From positions 192,291 to 256,290 of the forward strand of contig DASVUX010000011.1 in assembly GCA_036386835.1 (NCBI GenBank): DNA of 64,000 bases. Direction: 5' to 3'. This stretch comes from Bacteroidia bacterium (lineage in GTDB: Bacteria > Bacteroidota > Bacteroidia > 2-12-FULL-35-15). The notes beneath the pieces are model-generated. The model worked only from the letters and a program-made list of their open reading frames with translations, was not told the origin of the DNA and did not search any database. Position numbers and translations under genes: made by a program. Shown here one piece after another: positions 39,882-60,907 of the stretch (its first letter is position 1; each line of letters opens with the position of its first letter).

Positions 39882-39884
39882 AAT

Positions 39885-40415
39885 TTATTCCCTGTCTACC
39901 GGGATAATTTTTTGCAAATGAGCTTTCGCCCGTGAATATTGAGATTTGGAGGTGCCTTCGGAAATTCCAAGCATATCACCTATTTCTTTGTGGGAGTAGC
40001 CCTCAATAGCATAAAGGTTAAATACGGTGCGAAAACCTGTGGGTAGTGTCTGAATGATTTTCAAGAGATCCTTCGCAGCAAAGCTTTCGCTCATGTAATT
40101 GCTTGAAGGAAGCATGAATTCAACACTCTCCAGTTCTATGTTTTGTTTCAGTTTCTTGTTTTTTCTAATGTTGGTAAGGGCCGTATTCACCATTATCTTT
40201 CTTACCCATCCTTCCAGTGAACCTGCGCCCCTGAATGTTTCGATGTTCTGAAAGACGCTGATAAACCCATTCTGCACTACATCTTCAGCCTCTTCGTGAT
40301 TGTCGCAATAACGCAGACAAACACCCATCATTTTCTTTGAAAAACGCTCGTACAGATGCCTTTGAGCTATGGCATCTTTTTTAATGCAACCTTGTACTAT
40401 TTGCTCATCGGTCAT
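39885..40415 (-). CDS. ECF-type RNA polymerase sigma-70 factor
   Basis: 176 aa. Region 2 (DAIAQRHLYERFSKKMMGVCLRYCDNHEEAEDVVQNGFISVFQ) and region 4 HTH (YAIEGYSHKEIGDMLGISEGTSKSQYSRAKAHLQKII). Confidence 0.85.
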   Translation of the reverse strand: MTDEQIVQGCIKKDAIAQRHLYERFSKKMMGVCLRYCDNHEEAEDVVQNGFISVFQNIETFRGAGSLEGWVRKIMVNTALTNIRKNKKLKQNIELESVEFMLPSSNYMSESFAAKDLLKIIQTLPTGFRTVFNLYAIEGYSHKEIGDMLGISEGTSKSQYSRAKAHLQKIIPVDRE

Positions 40416-40431
40416 AACGTTTTTCTACCAG

Positions 40432-40461
40432 TTAAGACACAAAGTTGCAACATTTGGTTGC
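40432..40461 (-). promoter_or_regulatory. candidate ECF-type autoregulatory promoter upstream of the sigma gene
   Basis: Minus strand reads GCAACC-(18 nt)-TCTTAA, which resembles AAC-containing -35 and TCTnA -10 elements of ECF promoters, about 15 nt upstream of the ATG. It overlaps the inverted repeat tgcaac-atttg-gttgca (40446-40462). Confidence 0.25.
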
Positions 40462-40532
40462 ACAGGAAGTGAAATTTTTACTTTTTATTAACAAATGTAT
40501 TTTTAACCAATAAACAATAGCACTTTTGAAAA

Positions 40533-42932
40533 ATGGGAAAGAAATTTAAAAGCAAAACACAGGGTAAAAAAAAGAGTTATTTTTTTGAAGAGGTACTCAA
40601 TGTGCTTTCCAAATCGCCTTCTAAAAGCTTAAATTACAAGCAAATAGCATCCGAACTTAACGTTACCGACCACTCTCAGCGATTACTCATCAACTCCATA
40701 CTTGAGGAGCTTGAAGCAAACGATGCCGTATCGCAGGTGGAACGGGGCAAATTTAAACTTAAAAGCACTGAACGTTATATTTCCGGCAAGGTTGATATGA
40801 CGGCTTCTGGAACCGCTTATATCATATCGGAGGAATCAGAAGATGACGTGCTTGTAAACCAGAAAAAGACCCTTAATGCCCTGCATGGCGACATGGTGCG
40901 GGTATTATTATACCCTAAAAGAAAGGGGAAGCAGGAAGGGGAGATCGTTGAGGTACTTGAACGCGCCAAAACAGAATTCGTGGGAACAATACAGCTTTCA
41001 CCCCGGTTTGCATTCCTTGTCCCAAGCAACAACAAAATGCACGTGGATATTTATATTCCGCTGGAAAAACTCAACGGGGCAAAAGATGGCCAGAAAGCTA
41101 TTGCAAAAATCGTTGAATGGCCTAAGAATGGTGTAAACCCAATAGGCGAAATTAAAGAAGTGCTCGGGGATGTTGGCGATAACAACACCGAAATGCATGC
41201 AATCCTGGCGGAATACGGCCTGCCTTATCATTTCCCGAAGGATGTGGAACGTGCTGCTGACCTTATCCCTGTAGAGATTACTGAGGAGGAAGTCGCTAAA
41301 AGACGCGATTTCCGTAAGATCACCACATTCACGATCGATCCGGTGGATGCCAAGGATTTCGATGATGCTTTATCCATCCAGAAACTAAAAAACGGCAACT
41401 GGGAGATCGGGGTACACATCGCAGATGTGAGCCATTACGTGAAGCCGGGCTCTATGATTGATATTGAAGCGGTTAGCCGTGCTACCTCTGTATACCTTGT
41501 TGACCGCGTGGTTCCCATGCTTCCGGAAATCTTATCCAATAATGTCTGCTCTTTACGTCCTAACGAAGAAAAACTTTGCTTTTCAGCTGTTTTTGAAATG
41601 ACCGATGAAGCGGAAGTGGTGCAGGAATGGATTGGCCGGACTGTAATCAATTCCGATAAACGTTTCACATACGAGCAGGCCCAGGAAGTAATTGAAACAG
41701 GCGAAGGGGACTTTTCGGAAGAGATACTTACGCTTGACCGGCTTGCCAAGATCCTTCGTGCAAACCGTTTCAAAAAAGGAAGTATTGCATTTGAAAAAAT
41801 GGAAGTGAAATTTCACCTTGATGAAGCAGGGAATCCAACCGGAGTTTATTTTAAAATCGCAAAGGACTCAAATCAGCTGATTGAAGATTTCATGCTGCTG
41901 GCTAACCGTAAGGTCGCTGAATTTGTTGGCAAGGCGAAAGAAAAACAGGAAGGCAGGAAAGAAGCTGAACCGAAACGCGCTTTTGTGTACCGTGTCCATG
42001 ACAAACCCAATCCCGACAAGCTGGCAAGCTTTGCTGAATTTGTCGGCAAGTTTGGTTATAAGCTGAACATTAAAAATGAAAAAAGTGTTGCTGATTCACT
42101 GAACAACCTTTTAAAGGAAGTTAATGAAAAAAAGGAATCAGGCGTGATTGAATTGCTTGCGATCCGGACGATGGCAAAAGCGATCTATACCACAAAGAAT
42201 ATCGGTCACTACGGCTTAGGCTTTGAATATTATACTCATTTCACTTCTCCGATCAGGCGTTACCCCGATGTAATGGTCCACCGGTTATTGCAGCACTACC
42301 TGGATGGCGGGAAAAGCGCTGATGCCGAAAAACTGGAGGAGGATTGCATTCACTCTTCCGACATGGAGAAACTGGCGGCAGATGCGGAACGCTCTTCTAT
42401 CAAATACAAGCAGGTGCAATATCTCAAGGATAAGATCGGGCAGGAATATGACGGAAAGATTTCCGGTGTTACAGAATGGGGGATTTTTGTGGAAATAATT
42501 GAGAACCATTGTGAAGGAATGATCCGTTTACGCGACCTTACTGATGATAATTATTTCTTTGATGAGGACAATTATTGTCTTCGCGGAAAAAAGAACGGAA
42601 AAGTATTAACCCTGGGAGATGAAGTAAGAATAGAAGTGAAGCGTGCCGATCTTGTAAAGAAGCAGCTGGATTTTGCACTTGTTGAAATGAAGGATCAAAG
42701 GCCCGGTGAAAGAAAACAAGAAAGAAGCAACTCGACTTCAAGGAAATCTGAGCCGGGAAAAAAATCTTACGGGAATAAACGTTCTGGAAATGCCCGGCAG
42801 GGAAATGAAGAACCTAAGCATGAGCGGCCGTTAAACGAACGTCCCCAGGCAGAGAATCCGAATAAAAGACCTGAACCCAAAAAAGGTACTGAAGGAAAAG
42901 CATTCAGTGATGAGTGGGGATTTGAGATCTGA
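40533..42932 (+). CDS. rnr: ribonuclease R
   Basis: 799 aa. Cold-shock/OB N-terminal domains; RNB catalytic domain (FTIDPVDAKDFDDALS, HIADVSHYV); S1 domain; a Lys/Arg/Glu-rich C-terminal tail. Confidence 0.9.
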   Translation: MGKKFKSKTQGKKKSYFFEEVLNVLSKSPSKSLNYKQIASELNVTDHSQRLLINSILEELEANDAVSQVERGKFKLKSTERYISGKVDMTASGTAYIISEESEDDVLVNQKKTLNALHGDMVRVLLYPKRKGKQEGEIVEVLERAKTEFVGTIQLSPRFAFLVPSNNKMHVDIYIPLEKLNGAKDGQKAIAKIVEWPKNGVNPIGEIKEVLGDVGDNNTEMHAILAEYGLPYHFPKDVERAADLIPVEITEEEVAKRRDFRKITTFTIDPVDAKDFDDALSIQKLKNGNWEIGVHIADVSHYVKPGSMIDIEAVSRATSVYLVDRVVPMLPEILSNNVCSLRPNEEKLCFSAVFEMTDEAEVVQEWIGRTVINSDKRFTYEQAQEVIETGEGDFSEEILTLDRLAKILRANRFKKGSIAFEKMEVKFHLDEAGNPTGVYFKIAKDSNQLIEDFMLLANRKVAEFVGKAKEKQEGRKEAEPKRAFVYRVHDKPNPDKLASFAEFVGKFGYKLNIKNEKSVADSLNNLLKEVNEKKESGVIELLAIRTMAKAIYTTKNIGHYGLGFEYYTHFTSPIRRYPDVMVHRLLQHYLDGGKSADAEKLEEDCIHSSDMEKLAADAERSSIKYKQVQYLKDKIGQEYDGKISGVTEWGIFVEIIENHCEGMIRLRDLTDDNYFFDEDNYCLRGKKNGKVLTLGDEVRIEVKRADLVKKQLDFALVEMKDQRPGERKQERSNSTSRKSEPGKKSYGNKRSGNARQGNEEPKHERPLNERPQAENPNKRPEPKKGTEGKAFSDEWGFEI

Positions 42933-42935
42933 TTC

Positions 42936-43340
42936 TCAGTCGATAAGCGCCTCTAACAGCCTTGCTGTGTCGTCTCCTGACTTGCTGTTCTTGAGGTTCA
43001 GCGGCTTTAATATATAGCCTGTTACGCCCAGGTTTTGTGCAGCCATCTTATCATATTCTTCCCCGGAAGTAGTAATGATGAATATTTTTATGTTTTTAAG
43101 GCTGTAATAACTTTTAACTATTCCTAAAAATTCAAGGCCGTTCATTTTCGGCATGTTTATATCCAGCAGGATCACATCCGGCTGGATCTTGTTCTCTTCC
43201 GATGTAAGCATTTCAATAGCATCCACGCCATTATGTGCAACATGGAGCGTGTGGTTAATGTGGTTTTTTTTGAGTGACCTTCTGATGCTCTCCACATCCA
43301 GGTAATCATCCTCCACTAAAAGAATAACACTGTTTTTCAT
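42936..43340 (-). CDS. stand-alone response-regulator receiver domain protein (CheY-like)
   Basis: 134 aa. VILLVEDD with phospho-acceptor Asp in ILLDINMP and a conserved Lys (YILKP). No output domain. 4-bp overlap (ATGA) with the upstream kinase gene. Confidence 0.8.
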   Translation of the reverse strand: MKNSVILLVEDDYLDVESIRRSLKKNHINHTLHVAHNGVDAIEMLTSEENKIQPDVILLDINMPKMNGLEFLGIVKSYYSLKNIKIFIITTSGEEYDKMAAQNLGVTGYILKPLNLKNSKSGDDTARLLEALID

Positions 43341-44809
43341 ATCTGGTTCTTAATATCGGCCTTTGGCCAGGTAAAAATAAATGATGTGCCTTTTCCTAAC
43401 TCGGACTCCACCCTGATCGTCCCTTTATTGTCCTCTATCACTTTCTTAACGATGGCAAGGCCAACGCCCGTACTTTCAAAGGCATCACGTTCCTGCAGTG
43501 TCTGAAAGATGATAAAGATTTTATCAAAATACTTGGAATCAATCCCGGGCCCATTATCAGTAACATAAAAACAATAATGGTCTGTGAATTCTTCTGAACG
43601 GATAATGATCTTCCCGTCTTTACGATGGTTATATTTTACGGCATTGCTGATCAGGTTGGAAAAAACCTGTTCCAGGTGGAGCTTCTCTGCAAACAATGTC
43701 GGCATCGGTCCGATCACCACATTATAATTACGTGGAACGAGCAGGTCTATTAATTCCCTGACAAGAATTTCGAGTTCGATCTTTTCGGTCCCACGCTTTA
43801 TTTTTCCTACCCGGGCATACTCCAGCAGACCGTTAATCATGTTCTCAAGCCTGTTTGTTCTTCCTTTGATCAATGAAAGGTTGTGCCTGATTTCGGGTGT
43901 GGTGTCCTGCTCGTGATCTTCTTCCACCCAGGAAACTATATTTGCAATCCCACGCAGGGGTGCCTTGAGGTCATGCGAAACCACATACGCGAACTGGTCA
44001 AGTTCCCTGTTCTTTTTTGTAAGCTCGTTAAAATTCTTCTCCAGTGTGAGAGACATGGTATTCAATGATATTGCAAGGTTATTAAGCTCATCTTTCTTAT
44101 TATCTTCAATAGTGCGGAATTCCCCTTTTGAAATCGCCTTGGCAAGATTTACCATTTTGGAGATCCTCTTGGTAATAACCCTGATGAGATAAAAGCTGGA
44201 TATAATTGCAAGAAATACAGAAGCGACTGTAAGTGAAAGGGTAATGATTTTTGTACTTTCCAATGATTGCTGGAGTGCTTTTCTTCTTTCCTGCCTGATC
44301 TGGTATTCAAGATTATCAAAGCCACGGAAAATATTCTGGATGCGGTCATTAAGCTTTTTGCCAACTTCTGTCCTTAGCTTTGTTTCAAATAACTGCTGGT
44401 ATAATTTACTTGCATCCGGGAAGGTATCGAGGCGCGTAGTTATAAGCTGTTTTGAATATTGGATCCACTGGTGGTGCAGCTTATTAATCGTATCCAGGTC
44501 ATTCTTTTGCGCAGTGGTAGAAACCAGTCCGCGCTCCTCTTCCAGCCGCGGTGGAACACTTTTGAGTCCATGGTAATATGGCTGCAGAAAGCTTTTTTGC
44601 CCTGTAAGTAAGAATCCCCTGAAACCGCTCTGCATCTCAATCATTTCTTTCTGAAGCAGATTTGAGTTCCGGATGATCGTTTCTGAATTACTGATATAGG
44701 TCGTATTCCTGATGACTTCGTTTGATAACTTCTGGTTAACAAAAAAGTCAATTACAAAAATAAAGATCAATATAAAAAAGCCCGTGAAGAGCTGAAACTT
44801 TATCGACAT
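43337..44809 (-). CDS. sensor histidine kinase with periplasmic helical sensor (CHASE3-like, tentative), HAMP, HisKA and HATPase domains
   Basis: TM1 at the N-terminus, a ~170-aa periplasmic region, TM2 (ITLSLTVASVFLAIISSFYLI), HAMP, H-box VSHDLKAPLRG, and N/G1/G2 boxes (NAVKYN, DNGPGID, GTGVGLAIV). Confidence 0.8.
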   Translation of the reverse strand: MSIKFQLFTGFFILIFIFVIDFFVNQKLSNEVIRNTTYISNSETIIRNSNLLQKEMIEMQSGFRGFLLTGQKSFLQPYYHGLKSVPPRLEEERGLVSTTAQKNDLDTINKLHHQWIQYSKQLITTRLDTFPDASKLYQQLFETKLRTEVGKKLNDRIQNIFRGFDNLEYQIRQERRKALQQSLESTKIITLSLTVASVFLAIISSFYLIRVITKRISKMVNLAKAISKGEFRTIEDNKKDELNNLAISLNTMSLTLEKNFNELTKKNRELDQFAYVVSHDLKAPLRGIANIVSWVEEDHEQDTTPEIRHNLSLIKGRTNRLENMINGLLEYARVGKIKRGTEKIELEILVRELIDLLVPRNYNVVIGPMPTLFAEKLHLEQVFSNLISNAVKYNHRKDGKIIIRSEEFTDHYCFYVTDNGPGIDSKYFDKIFIIFQTLQERDAFESTGVGLAIVKKVIEDNKGTIRVESELGKGTSFIFTWPKADIKNQI

Positions 44810-44975: not shown

Positions 44976-45008
44976 AAAAAAGCCATCGCTTTTTGCAATG
45001 GCTTTTTA
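44976..45008 (-). terminator. rho-independent terminator after the LytTR response regulator gene (usable bidirectionally)
   Basis: Hairpin aagccatcgc-ttttt-gcaatggctt flanked by an A-run and a T-run. 19 bp downstream of the stop at 45027. Confidence 0.55.
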
Positions 45009-45026: not shown

Positions 45027-45779
45027 TTAAACCATGTTCAATCTTTTTGACAGATCATCTTTATAAGAGCCCCCGATCGGGATCAGCTTTTTGTCTTCTT
45101 CAAGAATCAGGTTTGGCTGTTCGATCGCAACGATCTTATCGATGCGCACAATGAATGAACGGTGAACCCTGATGAAATCACTTGCAGGTAATTTCTTCTC
45201 TATATCCTTCATTGTAGAATGTATGGTGTAGCGCGCGCTTGCAGTATTGATCACGACATAATCCTTAAGCGCTTCCACAAAATAAATATCGCTTGTTTTC
45301 ACTTTTACAAGCCTTGAATTCGACTTAACAAAAATTATATCCTTCGATTCTTTATTTTCAACTATCGAATAAAGAAAATCGCGTTCCTTTTTAACATCCG
45401 TTTCTTTCTCATGCTTGTAGATCGCCATTTCAATAGATGTATGCAGATCGATCTCTTTAAAAGGCTTGATGATATATCCGTAGGGTTCTGAAACTTTTGC
45501 CTTGCTTAATGTGCTTTCATCAGCATATGCAGTAAGGTAAATCACAGGGATGTTGAATTTTTCACGGATCTGGCCTGCTGCTTCAATGCCGCTCATATCG
45601 CCTTTAAGCATGATGTCCATCAGGACAAGGTCCGGTTTAACTTCTTCCGCTGTACGGATAGCGTCTTCACCGGTAGAACACATTCCAACCACAGTATAAC
45701 CGAGTTTTTTCAAGCTGTGCTGAATGTCTTTTGCTACTATGCTTTCGTCTTCAACTATTAGAATATTTGTTTTTGACAT
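45027..45779 (-). CDS. LytTR-family two-component response regulator (LytR/AlgR type)
   Basis: Receiver domain NILIVEDE...DLVLMDIMLKGDMSG...IKPF, and a C-terminal LytTR DNA-binding domain (FVKSNSRLVKVKTSDIYFVEALKDYVVINT...FIRVHRSFIV). Confidence 0.85.
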   Translation of the reverse strand: MSKTNILIVEDESIVAKDIQHSLKKLGYTVVGMCSTGEDAIRTAEEVKPDLVLMDIMLKGDMSGIEAAGQIREKFNIPVIYLTAYADESTLSKAKVSEPYGYIIKPFKEIDLHTSIEMAIYKHEKETDVKKERDFLYSIVENKESKDIIFVKSNSRLVKVKTSDIYFVEALKDYVVINTASARYTIHSTMKDIEKKLPASDFIRVHRSFIVRIDKIVAIEQPNLILEEDKKLIPIGGSYKDDLSKRLNMV

Positions 45780-45782
45780 CTT

Positions 45783-48700
45783 CTATATGCGGTTTTTTAC
45801 TTGATTCTGTTTAAATATGATCGTGTACTTTGTGCCGTTGGATGAATCCATCTCAATACTGCCGTTCAACTGGTCGGTCAAAGTTACAACTAATTGTAAT
45901 CCGAGCGACTGTGTATTCCTGTAATCTATTTCCTTCGGAAGGCCTATGCCGTTATCAGCGACTTCCAGCACAAGGTTCTCCTTATCCAGGACCATTTTTA
46001 CCGAGATCTCCCCTTCGCCTTTTTTATCGACAAATGCATATTTTAATGCGTTGGAAACGATCTCGTTAATGATCAATCCACATGGAATAGCCAGGTCTAA
46101 ATTAAGAAAAACATTTTGAATGTCAAGACTTAATTTTATTTCCTTGTCAAAATTAGAATACGATTGTATCAGGTTATGAGAAAGATTAACCACATATTCG
46201 GAAAAGTTAATGCTGGAAAAATCTTTTGTCTGGTATAAACTTTCATGGATAAATGCCATTGACTTTATCCGATTCTGGCTTTCCTTCAGTATATTAAGTG
46301 TTCCCTGGTCCTTCACGTATGATGACTGCAGGTTCAGGATGCTTGATATTACCTGGAGATTATTCTTCACGCGGTGATGTACTTCTTTGAGCAACACCTC
46401 TTTTTCCTGGAGCGACTGTTTAATCTTTTCCTCGGCAAGCTTTTTCTCCGTTATATCATTTCCTATCCCGGATATTTCCCTCACATTGCCGTTCTCGTCA
46501 AAGATCGGGTTAAGATAGATCTCGCGCCAAACAACGTCTCCGTTACGGTCTACCAGCTTTGTTTCAAAATGCTGGCGTTCGCCCCGTAATGCAGCTTTGT
46601 CTTTCTGAACCCAGAAATTATTATAATCGTTTGATGTGAGCATTTCGTCAGCAGCCATGTTTAAACCGATAAAAACTTCGGTGTTATAATGCTTCTTAAA
46701 AAAATGTGCGAAGTTCTTATTATAGGAGGTGAGGCACAAATTGGTATCAAGGGTCCAGATCACATGTGAACTGCTTTCGAAAACTGCATTCAGTTTTGCT
46801 GACTGCCCTCGTAATTGTTCCTCCGCCTGCTTGAGCTCCGAGATATCACGCGAAACACCCATTGCCCCAACAATTTCCCCGACTTCATTCCGGAGTACCG
46901 AAGCGGATAAAAATGCAGTGAAGCGCTCACCGTTTTTCCGGATATTACTTACTTCTCCTGAATAAACCCCTGTTTTAAACAGCTTCTCATCAGTTATCTG
47001 GACTCGTTGCTTTGGGTCTTCATAAAGCATGCTTACGTGCTTTCCGATCACTTCCTCGGGACTGTAGCCAAACGTGCGCTGCGCTGCAGCATTGAATTCA
47101 GTAATAAACCCATCCTTATCAGAGGCGCAGATCATATCAAGTGAGCTTTCTATCAGCAGCCGTGTGTATTTCTGGGATTCCTGCAGCTGTAGCTGGATGA
47201 CCTTCCGTTTGGTGATCTCCTGTTCAAGCAATTCGTTTGTTTCCTCAGCGATCTGCGCGCGCATCTGTTCCTTTACGAGCTGCTTCTGTGTGGATATGTC
47301 ATGTACTACTGTTAAAACTGCATCTTTACCATTAAATTTAATGAGGATCGGCTTGGTCTCCACTTCTCTTATTTCACCTGATAGGGTTTTAATTTTTATT
47401 TCGGTGAACTCCTGGGGTTCGCCTGCAATGACTTTACTAATCCGGCTCAGGATAGTTGGCTTGTATTCCGGGAGAAGGAAATCGAAGAGAGAATAGTTCA
47501 GGGCCTCTTCAGGATCCCTTATTCCTACAAGCCTTGTAGCGCTTGGATTTGCAAATACAACTTTACCGTTAATGTGTATAAAGACGCCATCTGGTGAATA
47601 ATCGACAAGGCTCTTGTAGTTCTCCCTGCTGCGTTTCAGTTCCACCTCGAATTTCTGACGGTCCGTGGCATCTATAATAAACCCTTCCAGGAACAAAAGA
47701 TCGCCATCTTCTGAAAAAACCCCCTCCCCTTTTTCCCATACCCATTTCACTTCATCATTAGCTGTCTTTATCTTATACGAAAGCACGTAAGGTTTTTTGC
47801 GCTCAAGCGCTGATGCAACCTTTGCTCTTACCTTCTGCCTGTCTTCCGGCATAATCAGGTCATTGTATGCGACCTTTTTATTGTGGATCATATCAACCGG
47901 CCTGTAACCTGTTAATTCCGCACAGCCCTTGCTTACAAACAACATTGTCCAGGAACCGTCAAAGTTACACCGGTAGGCCATACCCGGCAGGTTATTCATT
48001 AATGTAGAAAGTGTCCGTTCGCTTTCACGAAGGCTGGTCTCATATTGTTTGCGTTCTGTAATATTATAAATAACAGTTGCTTTGATCGTCTTTCCGAAAT
48101 AGGGGATGTTCTGTGCTTTTGTTTCCACGGTCATTATAGCTCCATCCTTCCTTACGGTTTGCACTTCAAATGGCTCGGACTTAGGAAGTCGTGAGAATTT
48201 TTTGGCCATGCTTCTCTGTTCGGGAATGACGAAATCATCAACAACATCTTTCCCAAGTATTTCATTCACATGATTATAGCCGTACATTTTCAGGAACTGA
48301 TCATTCGCATCAATGATGCGGCCGTGTTCAGAAAAAACGATCCCTTCAAAGGTTGCATTCGAAAGTATCTTAAATCTTTCTTCGCTTTCCTTCTGCTGGG
48401 TGATGTCCCTGGAAATCCCTTCAATTGCAATAATTTTTCCTTCACTGTTCCTTACTGGCGTGTTTACAGTTTCTGTCCAGACAGCTGTACCATCCTTGCG
48501 GATCCAGCGAAGTTTAATGTTAGGTTCACGTACATTATTGATCGGCCGGTTCTCAAAAATAAGCTTCTCCGAATCCCCGAGAATGTGCCGGTCCTCGGGA
48601 TGAATGATCTTAAAGCCAAGGTTGGGGTCCTTATAAAAATCTTCCGGAGTATAACCGGTAAGATTATAAATAGAAGGGCTCACATATCCATATCGTGGTG

Positions 48701-50045
48701 CGGGGCGGAGTTCAAAACGATAAACTACATCAAGCGCATTCTCTGCAAGCATCCTGAATTTTTCTTCACTTTCCTTCAGCTGGCGCTCTGCATTTATCTG
48801 AGCGCTGACATCTCTCACCAGCCCGAAATTCCCAATGTGATTACCTGATGCGTCTATCTGGGGCGTGATCCTTTCTTCGATCCAGATGTATTCTTTTTTT
48901 GAACGGTGATAAAACCTGTAAACAAACTCCTGCGGCTTCCTTGTTCTCCTTAGGTCCTTCGCAACTTTTCTTATTTTATCTATATCATCCGGGTGGCATA
49001 ATGCTACAAGTGTATCCCCTGATTTCTCATATTCTTTAGGTGTTACATCAAGGATTTGTTTTATCTGCCTGCTGAGATACTTTACTCTTCTTTTCCCTTC
49101 CGGCAAAAACTCAATGTAATAAACCAGTTCCAAAATATTATTCAGGACCTGTGAAAGATCCTCGCGGCTTTGTTTTAAAATATCCTCATTCTTCTTCCGC
49201 TCTGTAACATCCCTTGTGATTCCTTCTATTGCGACCATCCTGCCTTTACTGTCGTGCACAGGTATGTTCACGCTTTCGATCCAAACCACTTTCTTATCTT
49301 TCCGGATACTTCTGAAAAGCACCGGGGGCAATACAGCTCCGCGCTTTGCCTTTGCGATCTTTGCATTGTTGGCATCAGCAATTACCCGGTCCTCCGGGTG
49401 AATTATCCTGGTGCCCAGCATCGGGTCCTTATAATATTCGCCCTGAGAATATCCCGTGATCTTTTTAACTGAGGGACTGATAAATTCACATGCAAAGTCC
49501 GGGTACACCCGGTAGCGGTAAATAATATCTGCTGCATTCTGTGCAAGCATCCTGAATTTTTCCTCGTTCTGTGAAAGCTTCTCCTTCGCCTCTACTTCTT
49601 TGGTTATATTGGTTGCTTCAACAATTACTGCAGCGATTTTTTTATTTTCATACAGCGGTGTTGCTTTACAGGAAAAAACAGCGGCCTTTCCGGAAACAGA
49701 GTACGCTCTGGTCATGTATTCCCTGGACTTCCCGGTTTTAAAAACGGAGGTGATGGCGTTGCGCACAAGAGCGCGCGATTCCGGGAACACAAGATCAAAA
49801 GCCTTTTTACCAAGCACATCACTTTTTTTCCGGCCCTTCCCGGTTTTATTGACATCAAGAATGTTTAGCTTATGATCAACAACAGCAACAGTATTACCGG
49901 AGTGCTTAAAAACGCTTAGCCAGGGAACTCCTGCAACCTTTTTTTTGGAAACGGTGGCCTTATCCCTGTTTTTTGAATCAAGCCTTCGCTGAAGCTTTTT
50001 GAGTTCGGCAATAAGCTCTGATTTGGTTTTAGAGGAGAGAGGCAT
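45783..50045 (-). CDS. cytoplasmic multi-PAS/PAC sensor histidine kinase with HisKA_2-type phospho-acceptor and HATPase domains (1420 aa)
   Basis: No TM segments. At least seven PAS/PAC-like modules (repeated ..GxxxWxxxVNTPVxxxxGKIIAIEGISRDITExK.. blocks). H-box EVHHRVKNNLQVISSILNLQ is characteristic of HisKA_2. The C-terminal ATP-binding G-boxes include DNGIGLP. The start is 3 bp after the MORN gene stop, and the stop is 3 bp before the LytTR regulator start. Confidence 0.85.
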   Translation of the reverse strand: MPLSSKTKSELIAELKKLQRRLDSKNRDKATVSKKKVAGVPWLSVFKHSGNTVAVVDHKLNILDVNKTGKGRKKSDVLGKKAFDLVFPESRALVRNAITSVFKTGKSREYMTRAYSVSGKAAVFSCKATPLYENKKIAAVIVEATNITKEVEAKEKLSQNEEKFRMLAQNAADIIYRYRVYPDFACEFISPSVKKITGYSQGEYYKDPMLGTRIIHPEDRVIADANNAKIAKAKRGAVLPPVLFRSIRKDKKVVWIESVNIPVHDSKGRMVAIEGITRDVTERKKNEDILKQSREDLSQVLNNILELVYYIEFLPEGKRRVKYLSRQIKQILDVTPKEYEKSGDTLVALCHPDDIDKIRKVAKDLRRTRKPQEFVYRFYHRSKKEYIWIEERITPQIDASGNHIGNFGLVRDVSAQINAERQLKESEEKFRMLAENALDVVYRFELRPAPRYGYVSPSIYNLTGYTPEDFYKDPNLGFKIIHPEDRHILGDSEKLIFENRPINNVREPNIKLRWIRKDGTAVWTETVNTPVRNSEGKIIAIEGISRDITQQKESEERFKILSNATFEGIVFSEHGRIIDANDQFLKMYGYNHVNEILGKDVVDDFVIPEQRSMAKKFSRLPKSEPFEVQTVRKDGAIMTVETKAQNIPYFGKTIKATVIYNITERKQYETSLRESERTLSTLMNNLPGMAYRCNFDGSWTMLFVSKGCAELTGYRPVDMIHNKKVAYNDLIMPEDRQKVRAKVASALERKKPYVLSYKIKTANDEVKWVWEKGEGVFSEDGDLLFLEGFIIDATDRQKFEVELKRSRENYKSLVDYSPDGVFIHINGKVVFANPSATRLVGIRDPEEALNYSLFDFLLPEYKPTILSRISKVIAGEPQEFTEIKIKTLSGEIREVETKPILIKFNGKDAVLTVVHDISTQKQLVKEQMRAQIAEETNELLEQEITKRKVIQLQLQESQKYTRLLIESSLDMICASDKDGFITEFNAAAQRTFGYSPEEVIGKHVSMLYEDPKQRVQITDEKLFKTGVYSGEVSNIRKNGERFTAFLSASVLRNEVGEIVGAMGVSRDISELKQAEEQLRGQSAKLNAVFESSSHVIWTLDTNLCLTSYNKNFAHFFKKHYNTEVFIGLNMAADEMLTSNDYNNFWVQKDKAALRGERQHFETKLVDRNGDVVWREIYLNPIFDENGNVREISGIGNDITEKKLAEEKIKQSLQEKEVLLKEVHHRVKNNLQVISSILNLQSSYVKDQGTLNILKESQNRIKSMAFIHESLYQTKDFSSINFSEYVVNLSHNLIQSYSNFDKEIKLSLDIQNVFLNLDLAIPCGLIINEIVSNALKYAFVDKKGEGEISVKMVLDKENLVLEVADNGIGLPKEIDYRNTQSLGLQLVVTLTDQLNGSIEMDSSNGTKYTIIFKQNQVKNRI

Positions 50046-50048
50046 ATT

Positions 50049-51602
50049 TTATTTGATGCTTGGCTCTGAGGTAGGCGTTTCGGGTGTTACTTTAACCCCG
50101 TCAAAACGGATTTCAATATCATTCTTAAAAAGTATTGTCAGGAAAAGGAAACCCGACTCATCATAAAACTTCCAATCCCCTTCTTTTAATCCGCCAACAT
50201 ACTTTCCTGTCTGCCTTTCTTTCCCGTTCGGATAGTAGAATGTCTGTAACCCGTCAGGAATGCCGTCAATGAACTTTCCTGAAAAGCGTAATTTCCCGGT
50301 TGAGGTGTAATAATGTTTCCACTCTCCATCGCGTCTGTCGGCCTTATAGCTGCCTTCTTCCCTGTAGTCAGGAGCTTCCAGCACCCAGGGCCCTTCTTTT
50401 AAACCATCAATGTATTCGCCCTTCGTGATTATTTTTGCACTGTCAGGACCAGCATCGCTGTATTCGGTCATCATGCCATCCTGGAGATCATTCCGGTAAT
50501 TCTCTTCCCTTAAGAGATTGCCGCTTTCATAGTACCACTTCCAGATTCCCTGGGCCTTGCCCTTTTTATCATATTTCCCTTTCTGCTCCACTTTACCGTT
50601 TGCATGATAGAAGACCCATTCGCCAATCCTTTTTCCGTTGAGATATTCGCCTTTTGATTTAACCTGACCGTTCGGGTGATACTCCACCCATGGCCCCTGC
50701 TGCCGGCCCGCTGTATCAAGGATTCCTTCACCGGTTAATACTCCTTCGGAATACATTTTAGCCCCAATCACTTTTCCTTCGGGAGAGAACTCCCGCTGTA
50801 TGCCTTCTGCCACACCATCCTTATACGTTGCAGTGAATTTAACCGATCCATTATCGTGATAGGTTGTTTTAACATCCAGCTTCGCCAGTTCGGGAGCATT
50901 CGTCTGAAGAACCCCGTTAATGTATTTGGTGGTATTTACAAGACTCCCTTTGGGTGAGTATTCTTTGAGATAACCGTTCATCTTGTCATCGGAGTAAGTC
51001 ACTTCCGTTTTGATCACACCTGTAGGATAGAAGGTTTTCCACATCCCCTGTTTCAGCCCGTTTGCATCCTTCCGGTTGATCTTTTCCTCTTTCTGCACAA
51101 AGCCCATTTTGTATTGGGTGATCGTTATAATGGTGCTGTCGGGCGCATACTCATATCCGGCCCCTTCCTCTTTACCCGCTACAAACGGAATCGTTTGCTT
51201 TACCTTTCCATCCTTATAATAATTCACCGTATTACCCTGCTTTACATCATTCTCGTAATTTTCTGCAGTGACTACAACCCCTTCTTTTGTATCATAGATT
51301 TTCTTAGGGCCATTCTTCTTTCCTTCCGTGTAATTGAATTCAAAAGCAAGTTTGCCCTGCTCATTGTAGAAACGCCAGGTACTATCGAGCATGAAATTCT
51401 TCCGGTTGCCTTCCGATTTAAGCTTCCCGGTTTGAGAATACGTTTTCCAATAGCCGTCCGGCTTACCGTCTTTCATCGGGCCTTCGCTGGAAACTACCCC
51501 ATTATCATAATAGAATTTATTATAGCCGTTGGGATTGGTTGGTACCTGTGCGTATAAACACACAGGTAAAAACAATAAGAGCAGTCTGAATATGCTTTTC
51601 AT
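50049..51602 (-). CDS. secreted MORN-repeat protein (YwqK-like repeat family)
   Basis: Signal peptide MKSIFRLLLLFLPVCLYAQ. More than 15 degenerate ~23-aa repeats of the form G.W..YY.NG.L...G.Y..G...G.W. Confidence 0.7.
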   Translation of the reverse strand: MKSIFRLLLLFLPVCLYAQVPTNPNGYNKFYYDNGVVSSEGPMKDGKPDGYWKTYSQTGKLKSEGNRKNFMLDSTWRFYNEQGKLAFEFNYTEGKKNGPKKIYDTKEGVVVTAENYENDVKQGNTVNYYKDGKVKQTIPFVAGKEEGAGYEYAPDSTIITITQYKMGFVQKEEKINRKDANGLKQGMWKTFYPTGVIKTEVTYSDDKMNGYLKEYSPKGSLVNTTKYINGVLQTNAPELAKLDVKTTYHDNGSVKFTATYKDGVAEGIQREFSPEGKVIGAKMYSEGVLTGEGILDTAGRQQGPWVEYHPNGQVKSKGEYLNGKRIGEWVFYHANGKVEQKGKYDKKGKAQGIWKWYYESGNLLREENYRNDLQDGMMTEYSDAGPDSAKIITKGEYIDGLKEGPWVLEAPDYREEGSYKADRRDGEWKHYYTSTGKLRFSGKFIDGIPDGLQTFYYPNGKERQTGKYVGGLKEGDWKFYDESGFLFLTILFKNDIEIRFDGVKVTPETPTSEPSIK

Positions 51603-51758
51603 AATTTATCTTCTATACAAATTTAATCAAAAATGCAGCGGTTTCAAAACAGAAGAAGCTCCTCATCTGATTTTTCCTGCTTTTTTAACGTCTTTTGCAA
51701 TGTCATTAATTTCAGGTCTTTCAGAATAATGTTATACTTTTATAAAAAACAACGTACC

Positions 51759-52865
51759 ATGTTACGATTAAAATTTTTAGTGCCGGGGTTATTATGTTCG
51801 GGGCTATGTGCAGCCCAGATCACCATTACCGCTGCTGACATTGCGAATGCCGGGGATACATTACGTGTTAGCACCCTGTCCACAACCCAGGGAATTAACC
51901 ATACTTTAACCGGGCCGGGATATACATGGGATTTTTCAAGCCTTCAACCTGATATGCAGCGATTTGAAAAATTTGACGCACCATCCGCCTTTCCCTCTCC
52001 GTACAACCTTCTTTTTAATCCCGCGAATACTTCTTATGGTAAAGTGAATTATCAGAACATAGGTTCTGTTTTTCCGGGATTCAGCATTGATGCGGATTAC
52101 GATTTTTTCAAGGAAACAGCTGTCATGCTGCGCCAGAACGGTATTGGCTATGTGCTGAACGGCATACCGGTGCCAATGAATTACTCCATGCCTGATACCA
52201 TTTATGAATTTCCTGTTGAGTTCGGGGATACAACGAGCGGAGATTATAAATTTTCAACCCCTTCGTTTGCAGCCATTCCGTTCTATTATGGTGAAGTAGG
52301 CCACCGTGAAAGTGTTGTGGATGGATGGGGAGATCTCATTACTCCTTTCGGCACATTCCCTTCTTTGAGGGTCCGTGCTGTGATCACCGCTACAGATTCT
52401 CTTTACATCGATACTCTTGGTTTCGGTGTTTCGATCCCACGGCCTCCAAGGTTTGAATACAAATGGCTTGCAGCAGGATCAAAGGTGCCGCTGTTACAGG
52501 TGGATGCAACAGATGCGGGAGGGTCTGAAATTGTAACAGGTGTGTTTTACCGTGACAGCGTGCGGAATGTGCCACAGGTAGGCATCCAGGAAATTTACAC
52601 GATGAGCGGTTTTTCTGTTTCCCCGAACCCCTGCTCTGAGACAGCTGTTATAAATTATAGTTTAAACGGTTACGCTAAAGTAAAGATCAGCATCTCTAAT
52701 ACCCTCGGCCAGGTTGTTTCCGTTATCTCGGATGAAAAGCTGCAAGCAGGGAAACAAGCTCTGACAATAGATGTTAAGTCGCTGGGACTTGAAAGTGGGA
52801 TTTATTTTGTGACGCTGGAAAGCGGGAATAAAAGGGACGTAAAGAGGCTGGTGGTTGGGAAGTAA
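51759..52865 (+). CDS. secreted protein with type-A T9SS C-terminal sorting domain; N-terminal domain of unknown function
   Basis: The start is refined to MLRLKFLVPGLLCSGLCAAQ (ATG at 51759). The longer ORF from 51633 has no signal peptide. The C-terminal ~85 aa SGFSVSPNPCSETAVINYSLNGYAKVKISISNTLGQVVSVISDEKLQAGKQALTIDVKSLGLESGIYFVTLESGNKRDVKRLVVGK fits Por_Secre_tail. Confidence 0.65.
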   Translation: MLRLKFLVPGLLCSGLCAAQITITAADIANAGDTLRVSTLSTTQGINHTLTGPGYTWDFSSLQPDMQRFEKFDAPSAFPSPYNLLFNPANTSYGKVNYQNIGSVFPGFSIDADYDFFKETAVMLRQNGIGYVLNGIPVPMNYSMPDTIYEFPVEFGDTTSGDYKFSTPSFAAIPFYYGEVGHRESVVDGWGDLITPFGTFPSLRVRAVITATDSLYIDTLGFGVSIPRPPRFEYKWLAAGSKVPLLQVDATDAGGSEIVTGVFYRDSVRNVPQVGIQEIYTMSGFSVSPNPCSETAVINYSLNGYAKVKISISNTLGQVVSVISDEKLQAGKQALTIDVKSLGLESGIYFVTLESGNKRDVKRLVVGK

Positions 52866-53190
52866 CGTGTCATTTCGAACGGAACAACGTGAAAGAGAAA
52901 TCTCATTATAAAAGATTTCTCCTTATAGTCGAAATGACAAATAAGCAACGGGTTAACCTCTGCTCATATTATCACCTTGGAGAGATTCCGTCTCGCAGCA
53001 CGGAATGACGATCATACTGCATCCTGTCTGTCATTTCGAACGGAACAACGTGAAGAGAGAAATCTCATTATAAAAGATTTCTCCTTATAGTCGAAATGAC
53101 AAATAAGCAACCGGTTTACTCTGCTCATATTATCACCTTGGAGAGATTCTGCCTGCAATACAGAATGTGCGGTCTGCGCAAACAGCTTAT
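52866..53190. repeat. tandem duplication of a ~161-bp structured intergenic element (two copies, each with nested hairpins)
   Basis: Copy 1 is about 52869-53029 and copy 2 about 53030-53190; the first ~135 nt are near-identical. Each copy holds an outer 10-bp stem gtcatttcga...tcgaaatgac that encloses an inner 9-bp hairpin gagaaatct-cattataaa-agatttctc. Each also has a 3-prime hairpin whose sequence differs between copies but keeps pairing (attccgt..acggaat versus attctg..cagaat). Confidence 0.6.
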
Positions 53191-55172
53191 TTACTGCCTT
53201 CTGAAAATGTGGAGATCGCAATGATCTGGATCTTTCTTTCAAGTGCGGCTGCAGGGCTGTAAACAGAATTCTTGGTATCATAATAATCATCACTCACATT
53301 CGGCCTGGCTTTTAATTCCCCGATCTGCTCATCGATAAAAGTTATACTGCCCTCATTAGAATTTTGATTATCCAAATACTTTACGAACACTCCATTCTGG
53401 TATTCCATGAAATAATTGCGAAGGCTCGAAATCCTTCTTTTTGCAAGATTAACGTTGTAATCGGTTGATGCCAGCGGGCTGCAGAACCCCTTCATTGTTA
53501 TGGTCACTTTTTCCTTATCCTTTAATACTTTCAGCATCAGCTGCGCGAATTTATCAAGGTCCTGCATACCTGCATCCACGCTGTCGTCAAAGAGATTATC
53601 AATATCGCTGTATGCCCTTTCAATATTCTCCGCGGCAGCACCTTTAGAATATTCCTTTTTATACTGCTCCCGCATAGCGGAATAATCTTCATACGTCTTC
53701 TTATAGTTCTTTGTTGTTGTTGTAGCAAGCGTTTTCTTGTCAGGCTCATCATTGTGAAAATACAATGTAAGTGGCACAAGCAGCTTCATCTGCGTTACAA
53801 AGATCTTTGTACTGTCAACAACCACAGGCGGTTCATCTATCCGCGGGATCTTAAATGTGTAAATGTCATTGCAGCAGCTTTCTTTTTCCTCAAAATAGGA
53901 CCCGATTCGGTTAGACGATAAAAATGCTGCTGTTTTCTGAGAATTTATACTGAAATAAATATCGTTATAACTGGTATTGATGGGTGAACCAAGGTTCTTT
54001 ACATCAGAAAATTCTTTGTCCTTAAATTCGCTTCTGAAAATATCAAAAGCCCCCAGTCCTTTATGCCATGTGGAGGAGAAAAATAGCTCCTGGCAGGGTT
54101 TGCAATAAAACGGTGTGATCTCATCTTCAATAGAGTTTATCTTCTTCCCTGCATTTACCGCCTTATCAAAAGTCCCGTCCTTATTTATTCTGCTGTACCA
54201 TATATCCATCTGGCCTTCACCACCGGGCCGGTTGGAAGAAAAAAACAAGACTTCCTGTTCACCTAGAAAGCCAACCGCAGGCTGCGTGTTATTTGTTCCC
54301 TTTTTATTGATCTCTTCGGGAAGCAGCTGCAATGGGGACCAGTGGCCATCTTTAAAATCTGAAGAATAGATCTCACAATTAAACGACTGTCCGTCTTTCT
54401 GAACGCAGCGGGTTATATAAACTTTTGTAAAATCATTATTGAATGCAGTATTCGCGTTGTGGATCCCGTTCTTGTTAAACAGTGAATCCAGCTCCTCTGC
54501 TTTCTGCCATCTGATGCTGTCCTTCTTTGAAGTATAGATCTTATTATAACTTACATTATTCTTCTTGTCGTGGTCTTTTTTATCCCGTAATGAAGAGAAA
54601 TATAAAACACTGTCCACCTGGATGGGCGCATATTCAGATACTTTGCTGTTCACTGCACTGTCAAGATGGATCACATTTACCGACTTGTCAGCCCCGGCCA
54701 TCAGCAGCTGTGCATAGTCACAGGCAGCAACTTCCTGGATCGCCTTTTTAACGTAATAGCTGTCCTTTTTCTTTTTATTTTTCTTAGCATATTTATCGAA
54801 CATCTTTTTGGCATCCTTGTATTTCCCTTTATTCTTCCTGATCATTGCAAGCCAGAAGGAGCATTCAGGATACAGCTTGCCCTGGGAATCTTTTTTAAAA
54901 ACTTTTGAATACCAGTGGTCGGCAATATCGTAATCATAGTTCAACCGGCTGGCTTCAGCATATTTATACTGGATCGCCATATCGCTGGAGTCCTGGTTAA
55001 TTGCCTGGTTATAATAAATCGCTGCCGAGAAAAAATCATTGTCCGCAAAAGCTTTATCGCCATCTTCAATTAGCTGTTTCAGCTTCTGGGCTTGAAGGGG
55101 AGATGATAGATAGGAGATATTAGATATTAGAACGGCAATAAGAACAAAGAGAACTCTTGAGTATTGCCTCAT
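53187..55172 (-). CDS. OmpA-family protein with N-terminal TPR-like repeats and a TolB/WD40-like beta-propeller (PorE-like architecture)
   Basis: The start is refined to MRQYSRVLFVLIAVLISNISYLSSPLQAQ (ATG at 55172), which avoids the overlap with porP. A TPR-like N-terminus, TolB-like repeats (FSSNRPGGEGQMDIWYS), and a C-terminal OmpA_C motif TDYNVNLAKRRISSLRNYF. Confidence 0.7.
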   Translation of the reverse strand: MRQYSRVLFVLIAVLISNISYLSSPLQAQKLKQLIEDGDKAFADNDFFSAAIYYNQAINQDSSDMAIQYKYAEASRLNYDYDIADHWYSKVFKKDSQGKLYPECSFWLAMIRKNKGKYKDAKKMFDKYAKKNKKKKDSYYVKKAIQEVAACDYAQLLMAGADKSVNVIHLDSAVNSKVSEYAPIQVDSVLYFSSLRDKKDHDKKNNVSYNKIYTSKKDSIRWQKAEELDSLFNKNGIHNANTAFNNDFTKVYITRCVQKDGQSFNCEIYSSDFKDGHWSPLQLLPEEINKKGTNNTQPAVGFLGEQEVLFFSSNRPGGEGQMDIWYSRINKDGTFDKAVNAGKKINSIEDEITPFYCKPCQELFFSSTWHKGLGAFDIFRSEFKDKEFSDVKNLGSPINTSYNDIYFSINSQKTAAFLSSNRIGSYFEEKESCCNDIYTFKIPRIDEPPVVVDSTKIFVTQMKLLVPLTLYFHNDEPDKKTLATTTTKNYKKTYEDYSAMREQYKKEYSKGAAAENIERAYSDIDNLFDDSVDAGMQDLDKFAQLMLKVLKDKEKVTITMKGFCSPLASTDYNVNLAKRRISSLRNYFMEYQNGVFVKYLDNQNSNEGSITFIDEQIGELKARPNVSDDYYDTKNSVYSPAAALERKIQIIAISTFSEGSK

Positions 55173-55336
55173 AAATCCATCGCACATACGTGGACTCTGT
55201 TCAGCATAACCATTATTTACTGCAGCAGGTAATGAAGAGATTGCTTCGTTAGTGCCTCGCTCCTTCGGTCGCCATAGGCTTGCTGCAGACGATGCGCAAT
55301 GACGTTCCGTATCAATGATCCTGGTCTCCGGCATAC

Positions 55337-56353
55337 TTACATATAAATTGGACAAACGCGTTTTTTGGCAACGAAAGGAACGATCTTCTTAAAAATATAA
55401 ATGACGGAGATCTCGAATCCACCTCTGCGGTTTGTTGCTTCGATAAGCTTTGAAGTATTCACATCATAGCTGATCCCGACATTAAAATTCCGGTAATCAA
55501 CGTTGGCTGCTAAAATGAAAGCATCCTTAACACGGTAGAAAGCACCAAGAGACACGGCTGTTTCCAATCCATTCACTCCTTTCAGGTGATATTTACCAAA
55601 CAACCCCAAAAGTGTTTCCTGGAATTTGCCCTGGCGTTGGTACATAAAGCTCGGCAAGATATCAAGTTTCGCAGCCACCGGGATCTGTCCGAGGCCGCTT
55701 ACTGTTGTCTTTATATCCAGGCGGATATCATCATCGTTAAAGAAGGATTGCTTCGGCCTGTTAAGATGGAATGCGGACACACCGAAATTAACTTTGGTGC
55801 GGTTGGTTTTGCGCCAGTAATAAACGAAACCAGCTCCCATGTCAAAATATGTAATGCGTGTCCTGGAGAAGTTCTCACCGCTTGCGAGCGATGCGTTGTA
55901 CTGATCACCGTCATACTGGTTGTCGAATGTAAGGGCATTCACATTAAAACTTTTTGTGGTGATCCCCGGTTGGATAGCAACAGAGAGGAAGTGAGCTGAA
56001 TCTTTCGTAAGCTTTTTGATATATGATCCTGAAAGCAGGACCTGGGTTGTTCCGAAACGTGAATCACCTGATTTGTCATTGTTTATCTGCAGACCAACAC
56101 CGGGAACATCATTTTCAAGCCTGGTTTTTAAACGGGTATCGCCTGCAAGCGAAAAGGTTTTGTAAGGCACCGGGATTGCAGACCACTGGCTCCGGTAATT
56201 CCCGGCAAAGCGCCAGTCGCCATCAAACAAACCGGTTTGGGCAGGATTTAAATTCTGGGGAGAAGCGTTGAACTGGGAATAATGAATGTCCTGTGCATAG
56301 GAAGACCCTATACACAAAAACAGGAAAAATAATATGAGATTATTTTTATTCAT
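55337..56353 (-). CDS. PorP/SprF-family type IX secretion system outer-membrane protein
   Basis: Signal peptide, then the family-typical N-terminus QDIHYSQFNASPQNLNPAQTG. A ~300-aa predicted beta-barrel ending in an aromatic residue. It lies directly after a type-B CTD cargo gene (start codon abuts that gene's stop). Confidence 0.8.
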   Translation of the reverse strand: MNKNNLILFFLFLCIGSSYAQDIHYSQFNASPQNLNPAQTGLFDGDWRFAGNYRSQWSAIPVPYKTFSLAGDTRLKTRLENDVPGVGLQINNDKSGDSRFGTTQVLLSGSYIKKLTKDSAHFLSVAIQPGITTKSFNVNALTFDNQYDGDQYNASLASGENFSRTRITYFDMGAGFVYYWRKTNRTKVNFGVSAFHLNRPKQSFFNDDDIRLDIKTTVSGLGQIPVAAKLDILPSFMYQRQGKFQETLLGLFGKYHLKGVNGLETAVSLGAFYRVKDAFILAANVDYRNFNVGISYDVNTSKLIEATNRRGGFEISVIYIFKKIVPFVAKKRVCPIYM

Positions 56354-60685: not shown

Positions 60686-60907
60686 GTGTTCCGTTGATGA
60701 ATCTATTCAAAAATAAGCAAAATGTCATTCATTTGCTTTGCTGTCTGCCACCAATAAGTAATATTCGCTTCCCAAGCCTGTTTTTAAGACCATTATTTTA
60801 CTGTTCGGGTTGCATCTGTGCTGAAATTTCCCTCATTAAGAATTCCCTGCATTTAACGGCAGCAACTAAACTAATTAATTAAAGTAAAACTAATGGTGCG
60901 CAGTAAT

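Follow-up and report, generated by a model that had tools for sequence, protein, structure and literature searches.

A widely conserved Bacteroidota operon in which a MORN_2-repeat protein gene precedes the genes of a multi-PAS HisKA_2 kinase and a LytTR response regulator

Analysis of a 64,000-nucleotide stretch of DNA from a Bacteroidia bacterium (contig DASVUX010000011.1, positions 192,291 to 256,290; hereafter the window, the whole 64-kb stretch to which counts and fold statistics refer) indicated that the minus strand carries, one directly behind the other, the genes of a MORN_2-repeat protein, a sensor histidine kinase and a response regulator in which a receiver domain (REC) is joined to a C-terminal LytTR DNA-binding domain. 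The three open reading frames (ORFs) and the two elements bounding them are as follows.

50049..51602, minus strand: MORN_2-repeat protein gene (ORF, 517 aa)
45783..50045, minus strand: sensor histidine kinase gene (ORF, 1420 aa)
45027..45779, minus strand: REC-LytTR response regulator gene (ORF, 250 aa)
51618..51648, minus strand: putative Bacteroidetes sigma-A type promoter (TTTG, 19 nt, TAAATTTG; -33/-7)
44978..45007, minus strand: intrinsic terminator, a 13-bp hairpin (AAAAAGCCAUUGC / GCGAUGGCUUUUU) running into a U-tract

The gaps between the genes are 3 bp each, at 50046-50048 (MORN/kinase) and at 45780-45782 (kinase/regulator), and the JGI and Logan gene callers independently gave identical products of 517, 1420 and 250 aa with equal spacing on contigs carrying an identical regulator. 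The layout of the original prediction, which had been made from the letters of the window, was thus confirmed. Since the gaps measure 3 bp, no terminator can fit between the three genes. The promoter-like element, TTTG followed after 19 nt by TAAATTTG (51648-51618, minus strand), leaves 15 nt between its end and the MORN ATG; the Bacteroidetes sigma-A consensus is TTTG at -33 and TAnnTTTG at -7. Three exact matches to TTTG-N17-21-TAnnTTTG were found in the whole window, the MORN promoter among them, and a second one, at 30442, also lies directly 5' of a gene start. Of 25 close relatives of the window (L001-L024), almost all have a TAnnTTTG box at an equal distance from the MORN ATG despite differing upstream genes, and alignment of their upstream regions showed that the promoter-like block alone is conserved. 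The divergent ORF at 51633-52865 (plus strand), which codes for a Por_Secre_tail protein, would overlap this promoter if its start were left at the first ATG; the start is probably 32-42 codons further on, gene callers giving 368-378 aa, and the intergenic space open to the MORN promoter is then about 126-156 bp. The terminator hairpin, 20 nt past the regulator stop codon, has a predicted RNA fold of -18 kcal/mol (z = -4.67) and was matched in stability by 0 of 200 shuffles. Co-transcription, as originally proposed, is supported by the position of the sole full match to the promoter consensus in this region (5' of the MORN gene), the lack of room for a terminator between the genes and the hairpin after the regulator.

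An alignment of MORN orthologs was scanned against one genome per GTDB species, which gave at least 577 loci with a relative, and the best 80 of these, all from metagenome-assembled genomes (MAGs) of Bacteroidota, were fetched with 10-kb flanks and studied by tblastn and ORF analysis. Among these best 80, same-strand MORN, HisKA_2 kinase and REC-LytTR genes (the triad) were found in 50 loci, with MORN identity down to 48%. The MORN and kinase genes mostly overlap or lie 0-20 bp apart, gaps between the kinase and regulator genes run from -1 to about 20 bp, and the triad as a whole shows gaps of about -35 to +20 bp across about 45 species-level genomes. Fifty-four species-level Bacteroidota loci with enough flanking sequence were regarded as informative and showed the following arrangements.

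25 of 54 informative loci: nadA (quinolinate synthase gene) and the triad
15 of 54 informative loci: triad, nadA absent (lineage of the window; own promoter)
11 of 54 informative loci: nadA and MORN only (Lentimicrobium/Bacteroidales-like), no kinase or regulator within 10 kb
3 of 54 informative loci: MORN alone

The triad is therefore kept in 40 of the 54 informative loci, and the possibility raised with the original prediction, that it is not conserved in relatives, does not hold. Recurrence in about 45 species-level genomes exceeds chance by far; the three genes form a real and widely conserved operon, whose joint transcription is predicted from the sequence. Over 51 loci, the median identity to the window was highest for the two regulator domains (REC 83%, LytTR 80%) and lower for the kinase core (67%) and for MORN (56%), and the regulator is the slowest-evolving part of the operon. 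The 120 best regulator clusters from a database of 5.8 billion proteins are 84-100% identical, nearly all of them 250 aa long. Protein searches for a cultured host, including one with a divergent regulator (L064), gave MAG names only, and every member found of the operon group comes from a MAG.

Pfam analysis of the kinase revealed several PAS families, a HisKA_2 domain (PF07568) with 99.5 bits at residues 1221-1296 (cut-off 22.3) and HATPase_c with 46.8 bits at residues 1324-1413; it thus contains both parts expected of a two-component kinase, the H-box histidine of a dimerization and histidine phosphotransfer (DHp) domain and the ATPase domain. Its H-box, HHRVKNNLQ, occupies residues 1223-1231. 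The HWE_HK family (PF07536) gave a weaker, overlapping match of 26.1 bits covering 52 of 83 profile positions, and residues 1221-1420 contain zero tryptophans, so that the Trp-x-Glu signature of HWE kinases is lacking. Because its catalytic domain is without any tryptophan, the kinase is not of the HWE type, and the HisKA_2 classification made earlier is borne out by domain annotation. Neither the His_kinase family (PF06580) nor HATPase_c_5, which mark the LytS/YehU- or AgrC-type cores, is among the Pfam matches. Among solved structures, only the EL346 LOV-HisKA_2 entries 4r39 and 4r3a are related in sequence to the catalytic core.

The kinase N-terminus shows a coiled-coil-like stretch ahead of the PAS modules. 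An iterative hidden Markov model (HMM) built from the kinase's own repeats revealed nine PAS modules, and TIGR00229 likewise matched nine stretches; the "at least seven" first counted was right as to a large array, but was an undercount. In residues 1-1200 the maximum Kyte-Doolittle mean over 19 residues is 0.92, with no transmembrane candidate, and the kinase of 1420 aa is therefore soluble, as had been claimed. The modules are arranged as follows.

Kinase residues 37-157, 159-290, 292-423, 425-558 and 553-672, minus strand: PAS1 to PAS5 (iterative HMM)
Kinase residues 674-803, 805-927, 956-1078 and 1080-1208, minus strand: PAS6 to PAS9 (iterative HMM)
46422..47180 (kinase residues 956-1208), minus strand: PAS8 and PAS9, conserved sensor core beside the DHp domain (orthologue identity)

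Comparison of 51 orthologous kinases showed that PAS8 is found at 40% identity or more in 34 (median 65%) and PAS9 in 38, and that PAS1-7 are variable, poorly conserved or absent. The motif HHRVKNN was present in all 51, and two short orthologues were also confirmed as HisKA_2 by Pfam. The orthologues range from 348 to 1677 aa and from 1 to 11 PAS modules, none of them with a transmembrane segment. A membrane anchor was considered for the N-terminal hydrophobic peaks of some orthologues and rejected, the peaks being the first PAS strand. PAS8 as a LOV domain or photoreceptor was likewise considered and rejected: LOV domains show the motif GRNCRFLQ, and PAS8 has GKHVSMLY in its place. In the window kinase, PAS2 and PAS4 (48372-49571, minus strand, residues 159-558) share 46% identity over 130 residues and other PAS pairs share about 25%, a likeness that marks a relatively recent internal duplication within the sensor array.

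The regulator gave Pfam matches to Response_reg (84.5 bits) and to LytTR (PF04397; 80.7 bits at residues 156-247), in agreement with its earlier description as a LytTR response regulator, and the receiver catalytic residues E10, D11, D55, T83 and K105 are all present. The best NCBIfam match of the REC domain was the PhyR-family receiver (3.7e-31, others about 1e-20); the PhyR model was matched at its receiver positions 137-257 only, and the output of the regulator is LytTR. The BtsR and LytR models of NCBIfam matched the regulator over its full length with sub-threshold scores. The nearest solved receivers include PdtaR (1s8n), Sma0114 (2n9u) and PhyR (4g97, 4qic, 3n0r), and Sma0114 is the partner of a HWE kinase. 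Since a receiver of the type that partners HWE/HisKA_2 kinases is encoded beside a HisKA_2 kinase, the two appear to be a matched pair, with LytTR as the output joined to that receiver type. FATGUY receivers, in which one residue of the Y-T coupling pair is lost, carry the motif PFxFATGUY (PMC5964349); the corresponding region of our receiver reads PVIYLTAYA with T83 and Y102 kept, which places it outside the strict FATGUY group.

The original prediction had called the pairing of a HisKA_2 kinase with a LytTR output less usual. This is fair with respect to the described alphaproteobacterial systems, and the partners of HWE/HisKA2 kinases are often without DNA-binding outputs (PMC10359499), but the receiver is of the fitting type and the same pairing was found further afield. 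When 1.84 billion representatives were scanned in full with HMMER, full-length REC-LytTR relatives were found at 37-56% identity, and the context was read for five of these distant relatives, three of which, at 51-56% identity, adjoin HisKA_2 kinases.

P0242: HisKA_2 kinase 5 bp upstream of the REC-LytTR gene
P0246: HisKA_2-type core 8 bp upstream of the REC-LytTR gene
P0255: two HisKA_2 kinases near the REC-LytTR gene
P0244 and P0248: REC-LytTR orphans, both

Because it recurs beside such distant relatives, the pairing of a HisKA_2 kinase with a REC-LytTR regulator is a recurring class and not an oddity. From their adjacency, conserved in about 50 genomes, we infer phosphotransfer from the kinase to the regulator; DNA binding by the regulator, the kind of signal sensed and the regulon are likewise predictions. 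Outside the triad, no HisKA_2 kinases or LytTR regulators were found in the 1.5 Mb of fetched loci, and searches of the accessible literature on HisKA_2 with LytTR, Bacteroidetes MORN with LytTR and Bacteroidetes LytTR with PAS returned nothing relevant. The contig that gives the context of P0255 (L093), where a 51%-identical REC-LytTR gene lies between HisKA_2 kinase genes, also carries genes for a RuBisCO large subunit and chemotaxis proteins, and its organism may lie outside Bacteroidota.

The 517-aa product of the first gene belongs to the MORN_2 family of proteins with multiple MORN-variant repeats (PF07661; 147.6 bits, 2.3e-45, cut-off 29.6, five stretches). Its N-terminus, MKSIFRLLLLFLPVCLYA|QVP, shows a basic n-region, a hydrophobic core and an Ala-Gln junction, and residues 1-18 are a predicted signal peptide cleaved at LYA|Q. 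An A|Q junction is common in signal peptidase I substrates of Bacteroidetes (the "Q-rule"), and Gln19 is at least 90% conserved across 46 orthologues. These features agree with the signal peptide of the original prediction and argue for export of the protein; a type IX secretion system (T9SS) C-terminal domain was not found in it by Pfam. An AlphaFold2 model built from a 46-sequence alignment (pLDDT 89.3) has an N-terminal helix, which is the signal peptide, and past this helix consists of beta-hairpins throughout, with about 41 beta-strands (about 20 hairpins) in two arrays split at about residues 235-242. Foldseek matched the model to MORN1 and junctophilin and, at low TM-scores, to Rhs/teneurin repeat sheets, and a PDB sequence search with the protein gave no relative.

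Source annotations name homologues of this protein "antitoxin component YwqK" or "toxin-antitoxin system YwqK family antitoxin", which would make the MORN gene an antitoxin or immunity gene and the locus a toxin-antitoxin or defence module. A YwqK antitoxin is cytoplasmic and has a cognate YwqJ-like toxin encoded beside it. The protein described here has a conserved signal peptide and 517 aa of repeats, its neighbours are the kinase gene, nadA or T9SS genes and nothing toxin-like, neither it nor the kinase gave a PADLOC match, and its gene, single-copy-like, is found conserved and in synteny throughout the phylum. We therefore rejected this reading as hardly credible, and since there is neither a toxin neighbour nor a PADLOC match, the "YwqK antitoxin" label is almost certainly wrong for this orthologous group.

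Accessory sensor proteins encoded 5' of kinases occur in other two-component systems, and the tight and conserved adjacency of the MORN and kinase genes would fit a periplasmic co-sensor or accessory protein that relays an envelope signal to the kinase, in the manner of accessory lipoproteins or periplasmic binding proteins. On the other hand, the operon encodes no membrane-spanning partner, the window kinase and its 51 orthologues have no transmembrane segment (their hydrophobic peaks are PAS or N-box helices), and the MORN gene is kept in genomes without an adjacent kinase. As every orthologue of the kinase is cytosolic, a co-sensor role of the MORN protein is very unlikely.

We favour, with a probability of roughly 0.6, a cytoplasmic two-component system in which a PAS-integrating HisKA_2 kinase acts on a LytTR regulator and which is co-expressed with an exported MORN scaffold. 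The locus would be a vertically inherited Bacteroidota operon made up of the promoter, the MORN-array gene, the multi-PAS HisKA_2 kinase gene, the REC-LytTR regulator gene and the terminator. The cytoplasmic kinase would integrate intracellular cues through its PAS array, in which PAS8 and PAS9 form the core and N-terminal PAS modules have presumably been gained and lost between species, and would autophosphorylate on the histidine of the HHRVKNN H-box. The phosphoryl group would pass to the regulator at Asp55, its receiver being of the kind found as partner to HWE/HisKA_2 kinases, and the LytTR domain of the phosphorylated regulator would then bind DNA and alter transcription. The MORN protein would leave the cytoplasm through Sec and signal peptidase I and form an elongated beta-hairpin scaffold in the periplasm or at the outer membrane. 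Its tie to the two-component system would be the one shared promoter, possibly with autoregulation, and not a direct signal input to the kinase.

Several observations weigh against this reading. At MORN identities of 59% or less, nadA (Pfam NadA, 7e-122) lies directly 5' of the MORN gene, with a gap between -4 (often a 4-nt overlap) and about 60 bp, as tight as that between MORN and kinase; this was the case in 36 of the 54 informative loci and 48 of 77 overall. Eleven loci of Lentimicrobium-like genomes keep nadA and MORN without the kinase and regulator, and in one locus (L087) hemA, a HisKA_2 kinase gene and the regulator gene, with rnr convergent, stand without MORN. A -7-like TAnnTTTG box at 45886 (minus strand), in the 3' end of the kinase gene and 107 nt before the regulator ATG, could be a secondary, internal promoter for the regulator alone; such boxes number five on the coding strand of the 6.8-kb operon region and occur in the whole window at 0.34 per kb per strand. 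LytTR regulators bind paired direct repeats 5' of the promoters that they control. Autoregulation by the regulator is unsupported, as no LytTR-type direct repeats were found upstream of the operon: in 51580-51760, the 180 nt 5' of the MORN gene, no direct or inverted repeats of 8 nt or more were found.

As MORN is tied to nadA just as closely and also occurs without the two-component genes, its co-expression with them may be without functional meaning. The deep gene order was found to be rpiB on the minus strand, then nadA, MORN, kinase and regulator, then rnr on the minus strand and an ECF (extracytoplasmic function) sigma gene. Starting from an ancestral nadA-MORN-kinase-regulator order with rnr convergent, MORN would stand in the operon for historical reasons, neither part nor target of the signalling, and the kinase and regulator would rely on any upstream promoter; the synteny with rnr and the ECF sigma gene in 22 loci points in the same direction, to a general deep conservation of gene order here. 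Against this, T9SS genes were inserted 5' and the nadA link was broken in the window's lineage, yet the block of three remained intact behind a dedicated promoter in 15 loci, and in lineages whose MORN identity spans 48-85% no junction exceeds about 20 bp. The block staying whole after rearrangement argues for more than accident, and we regard synteny without function, the chief rival of the favoured reading, as possible though somewhat unlikely. The original prediction had taken the tight coupling as a sign of a specific link between the MORN protein and the kinase, a claim which is weakened: since MORN is equally tied to nadA and each side is found without the other, tight coupling alone is no sign of a physical or sensory partnership.

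Analysis of the region upstream of nadA gave observations of a different kind. In most of the 40 species examined the rpiB-nadA intergenic region, which is absent from the window, measures 420-550 bp, and no conserved small ORF and no Rfam match were found in it in these species. The last ~170 nt before nadA (L028-L080; 8770-8939 in L053, 8785-8954 in L029) carry boxes conserved phylum-wide, namely TGTTNATAA-like repeats or palindromes such as TTAATAGACTGTTATTA, then ACAGTAYTAACAG and ATAATAATA, which are present with or without the kinase and regulator. This conserved stretch is probably an undescribed nadA/NAD regulatory region. In a Draconibacterium-labelled MAG (L071, 9956-13279), MORN is followed by a pseudouridine synthase (S4 and PseudoU_synth_2) and a REC-PAS protein, which replace the kinase and the LytTR regulator.

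Upstream of the operon in the window (53187-63988, minus strand) lie genes for two large CHU_C (T9SS type B) proteins with PKD/DUF7948 domains, then a PorP/SprF gene and a gene for a 722-aa OmpA-like protein. These are a separate, typical T9SS cargo module; the OmpA-like and PorP/SprF genes were considered as members of the operon and set aside, as they trail the two CHU_C cargo genes and are absent from distant triad loci. Downstream, between the LytTR regulator and RNase R genes, a CHASE3-HAMP-HisKA kinase gene and a gene for a REC-only protein (the latter at 42936-43340) overlap by 4 nt (42936-44809, minus strand), a pair seen only in the window, in L001 and in the identical contigs L081-L084. 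The RNase R gene (rnr), convergent to the regulator, and the ECF sigma gene (38889-42932 in the window; also L004, L030 and others) are those syntenic with the operon. An Rfam search of the window and three loci gave a tRNA as the sole match.

39885-40415: ECF sigma gene, parted from the regulator by three genes and followed by the gene of a small PKD-CHU_C protein

The operon is an uncharacterised but recurrent wiring of familiar domains in mostly uncultured Bacteroidota. Nearly all that is known of HWE/HisKA_2 kinases comes from the general-stress circuits of Alphaproteobacteria, where their partners are usually without DNA-binding domains, and LytTR regulators are known from the membrane-kinase systems Agr, Com and LytST; at this locus, in a different phylum, a HisKA_2 kinase is wired in a conserved and coherent way to a LytTR transcription factor, and the regulator is among the slowest-evolving genes of the neighbourhood. 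Its orthologues with 1 to 11 PAS domains form a natural series on how PAS arrays are built and read, and the genes nadA, MORN, kinase and regulator give a regulatory and genomic context to a MORN protein, phylum-wide and predicted to be exported, which carries a wrong antitoxin label in databases. Practical value is limited, as members are known from MAGs only and nothing points to signal or regulon. A bolder view, which we put forward tentatively and hold to be rather doubtful, is that of an undescribed two-component class, in which a near-invariant global regulator serves a large, mostly uncultured branch of Bacteroidia, the PAS array (1-11 modules) retunes the input and MORN belongs to the regulon. 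If this were true, the regulon would include the exported MORN scaffold and hence some envelope property, and no bacterial MORN_2 protein would have been given a regulatory context before this one.

Comparison with known MORN proteins showed that the window protein shares repeated beta-hairpins, forming an elongated single-layer sheet, with the apicomplexan and trypanosome MORN1 scaffolds, the junctophilins and the bacterial MORN_2 "YwqK" proteins. It differs from them in its predicted export (signal peptide, conserved +1 Gln), in its much greater length of about 20 hairpins in two arrays, and in being without a toxin partner or a solved sequence homologue.

With the alphaproteobacterial HWE/HisKA_2 systems, in which PAS/LOV kinases such as EL346, LovK and PhyK act on PhyR or single-domain receivers, the window system shares a soluble kinase with PAS sensors, a HisKA_2 DHp domain with a HHRVKNN-type H-box and a PhyR/Sma0114/PdtaR-like receiver. 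However, its output is a LytTR DNA-binding domain and not a sigma-like domain or a stand-alone receiver, its kinase has nine PAS modules where theirs have one to three, and it belongs to the phylum Bacteroidota. A PhyR-NepR-EcfG system is recognized by an N-terminal sigma-like domain and adjacent nepR and ecfG genes; the window locus has no NepR, its ECF sigma gene is non-adjacent and 5 kb off, and the neighbours of the regulator are the kinase and the CHASE3 kinase genes. The layout of REC followed by LytTR and the length of about 250 aa are shared with the regulators of AgrC-AgrA, ComD-ComE and LytS-LytT/YehU-YehT (BtsS-BtsR). In these classical systems the partner kinase spans the membrane several times and is of the HPK10 (HATPase_c_5) or the His_kinase/PF06580 type, whereas the window kinase is soluble and of the HisKA_2 type, and the window receiver is nearer to PhyR-type receivers than to those of AgrA or BtsR.

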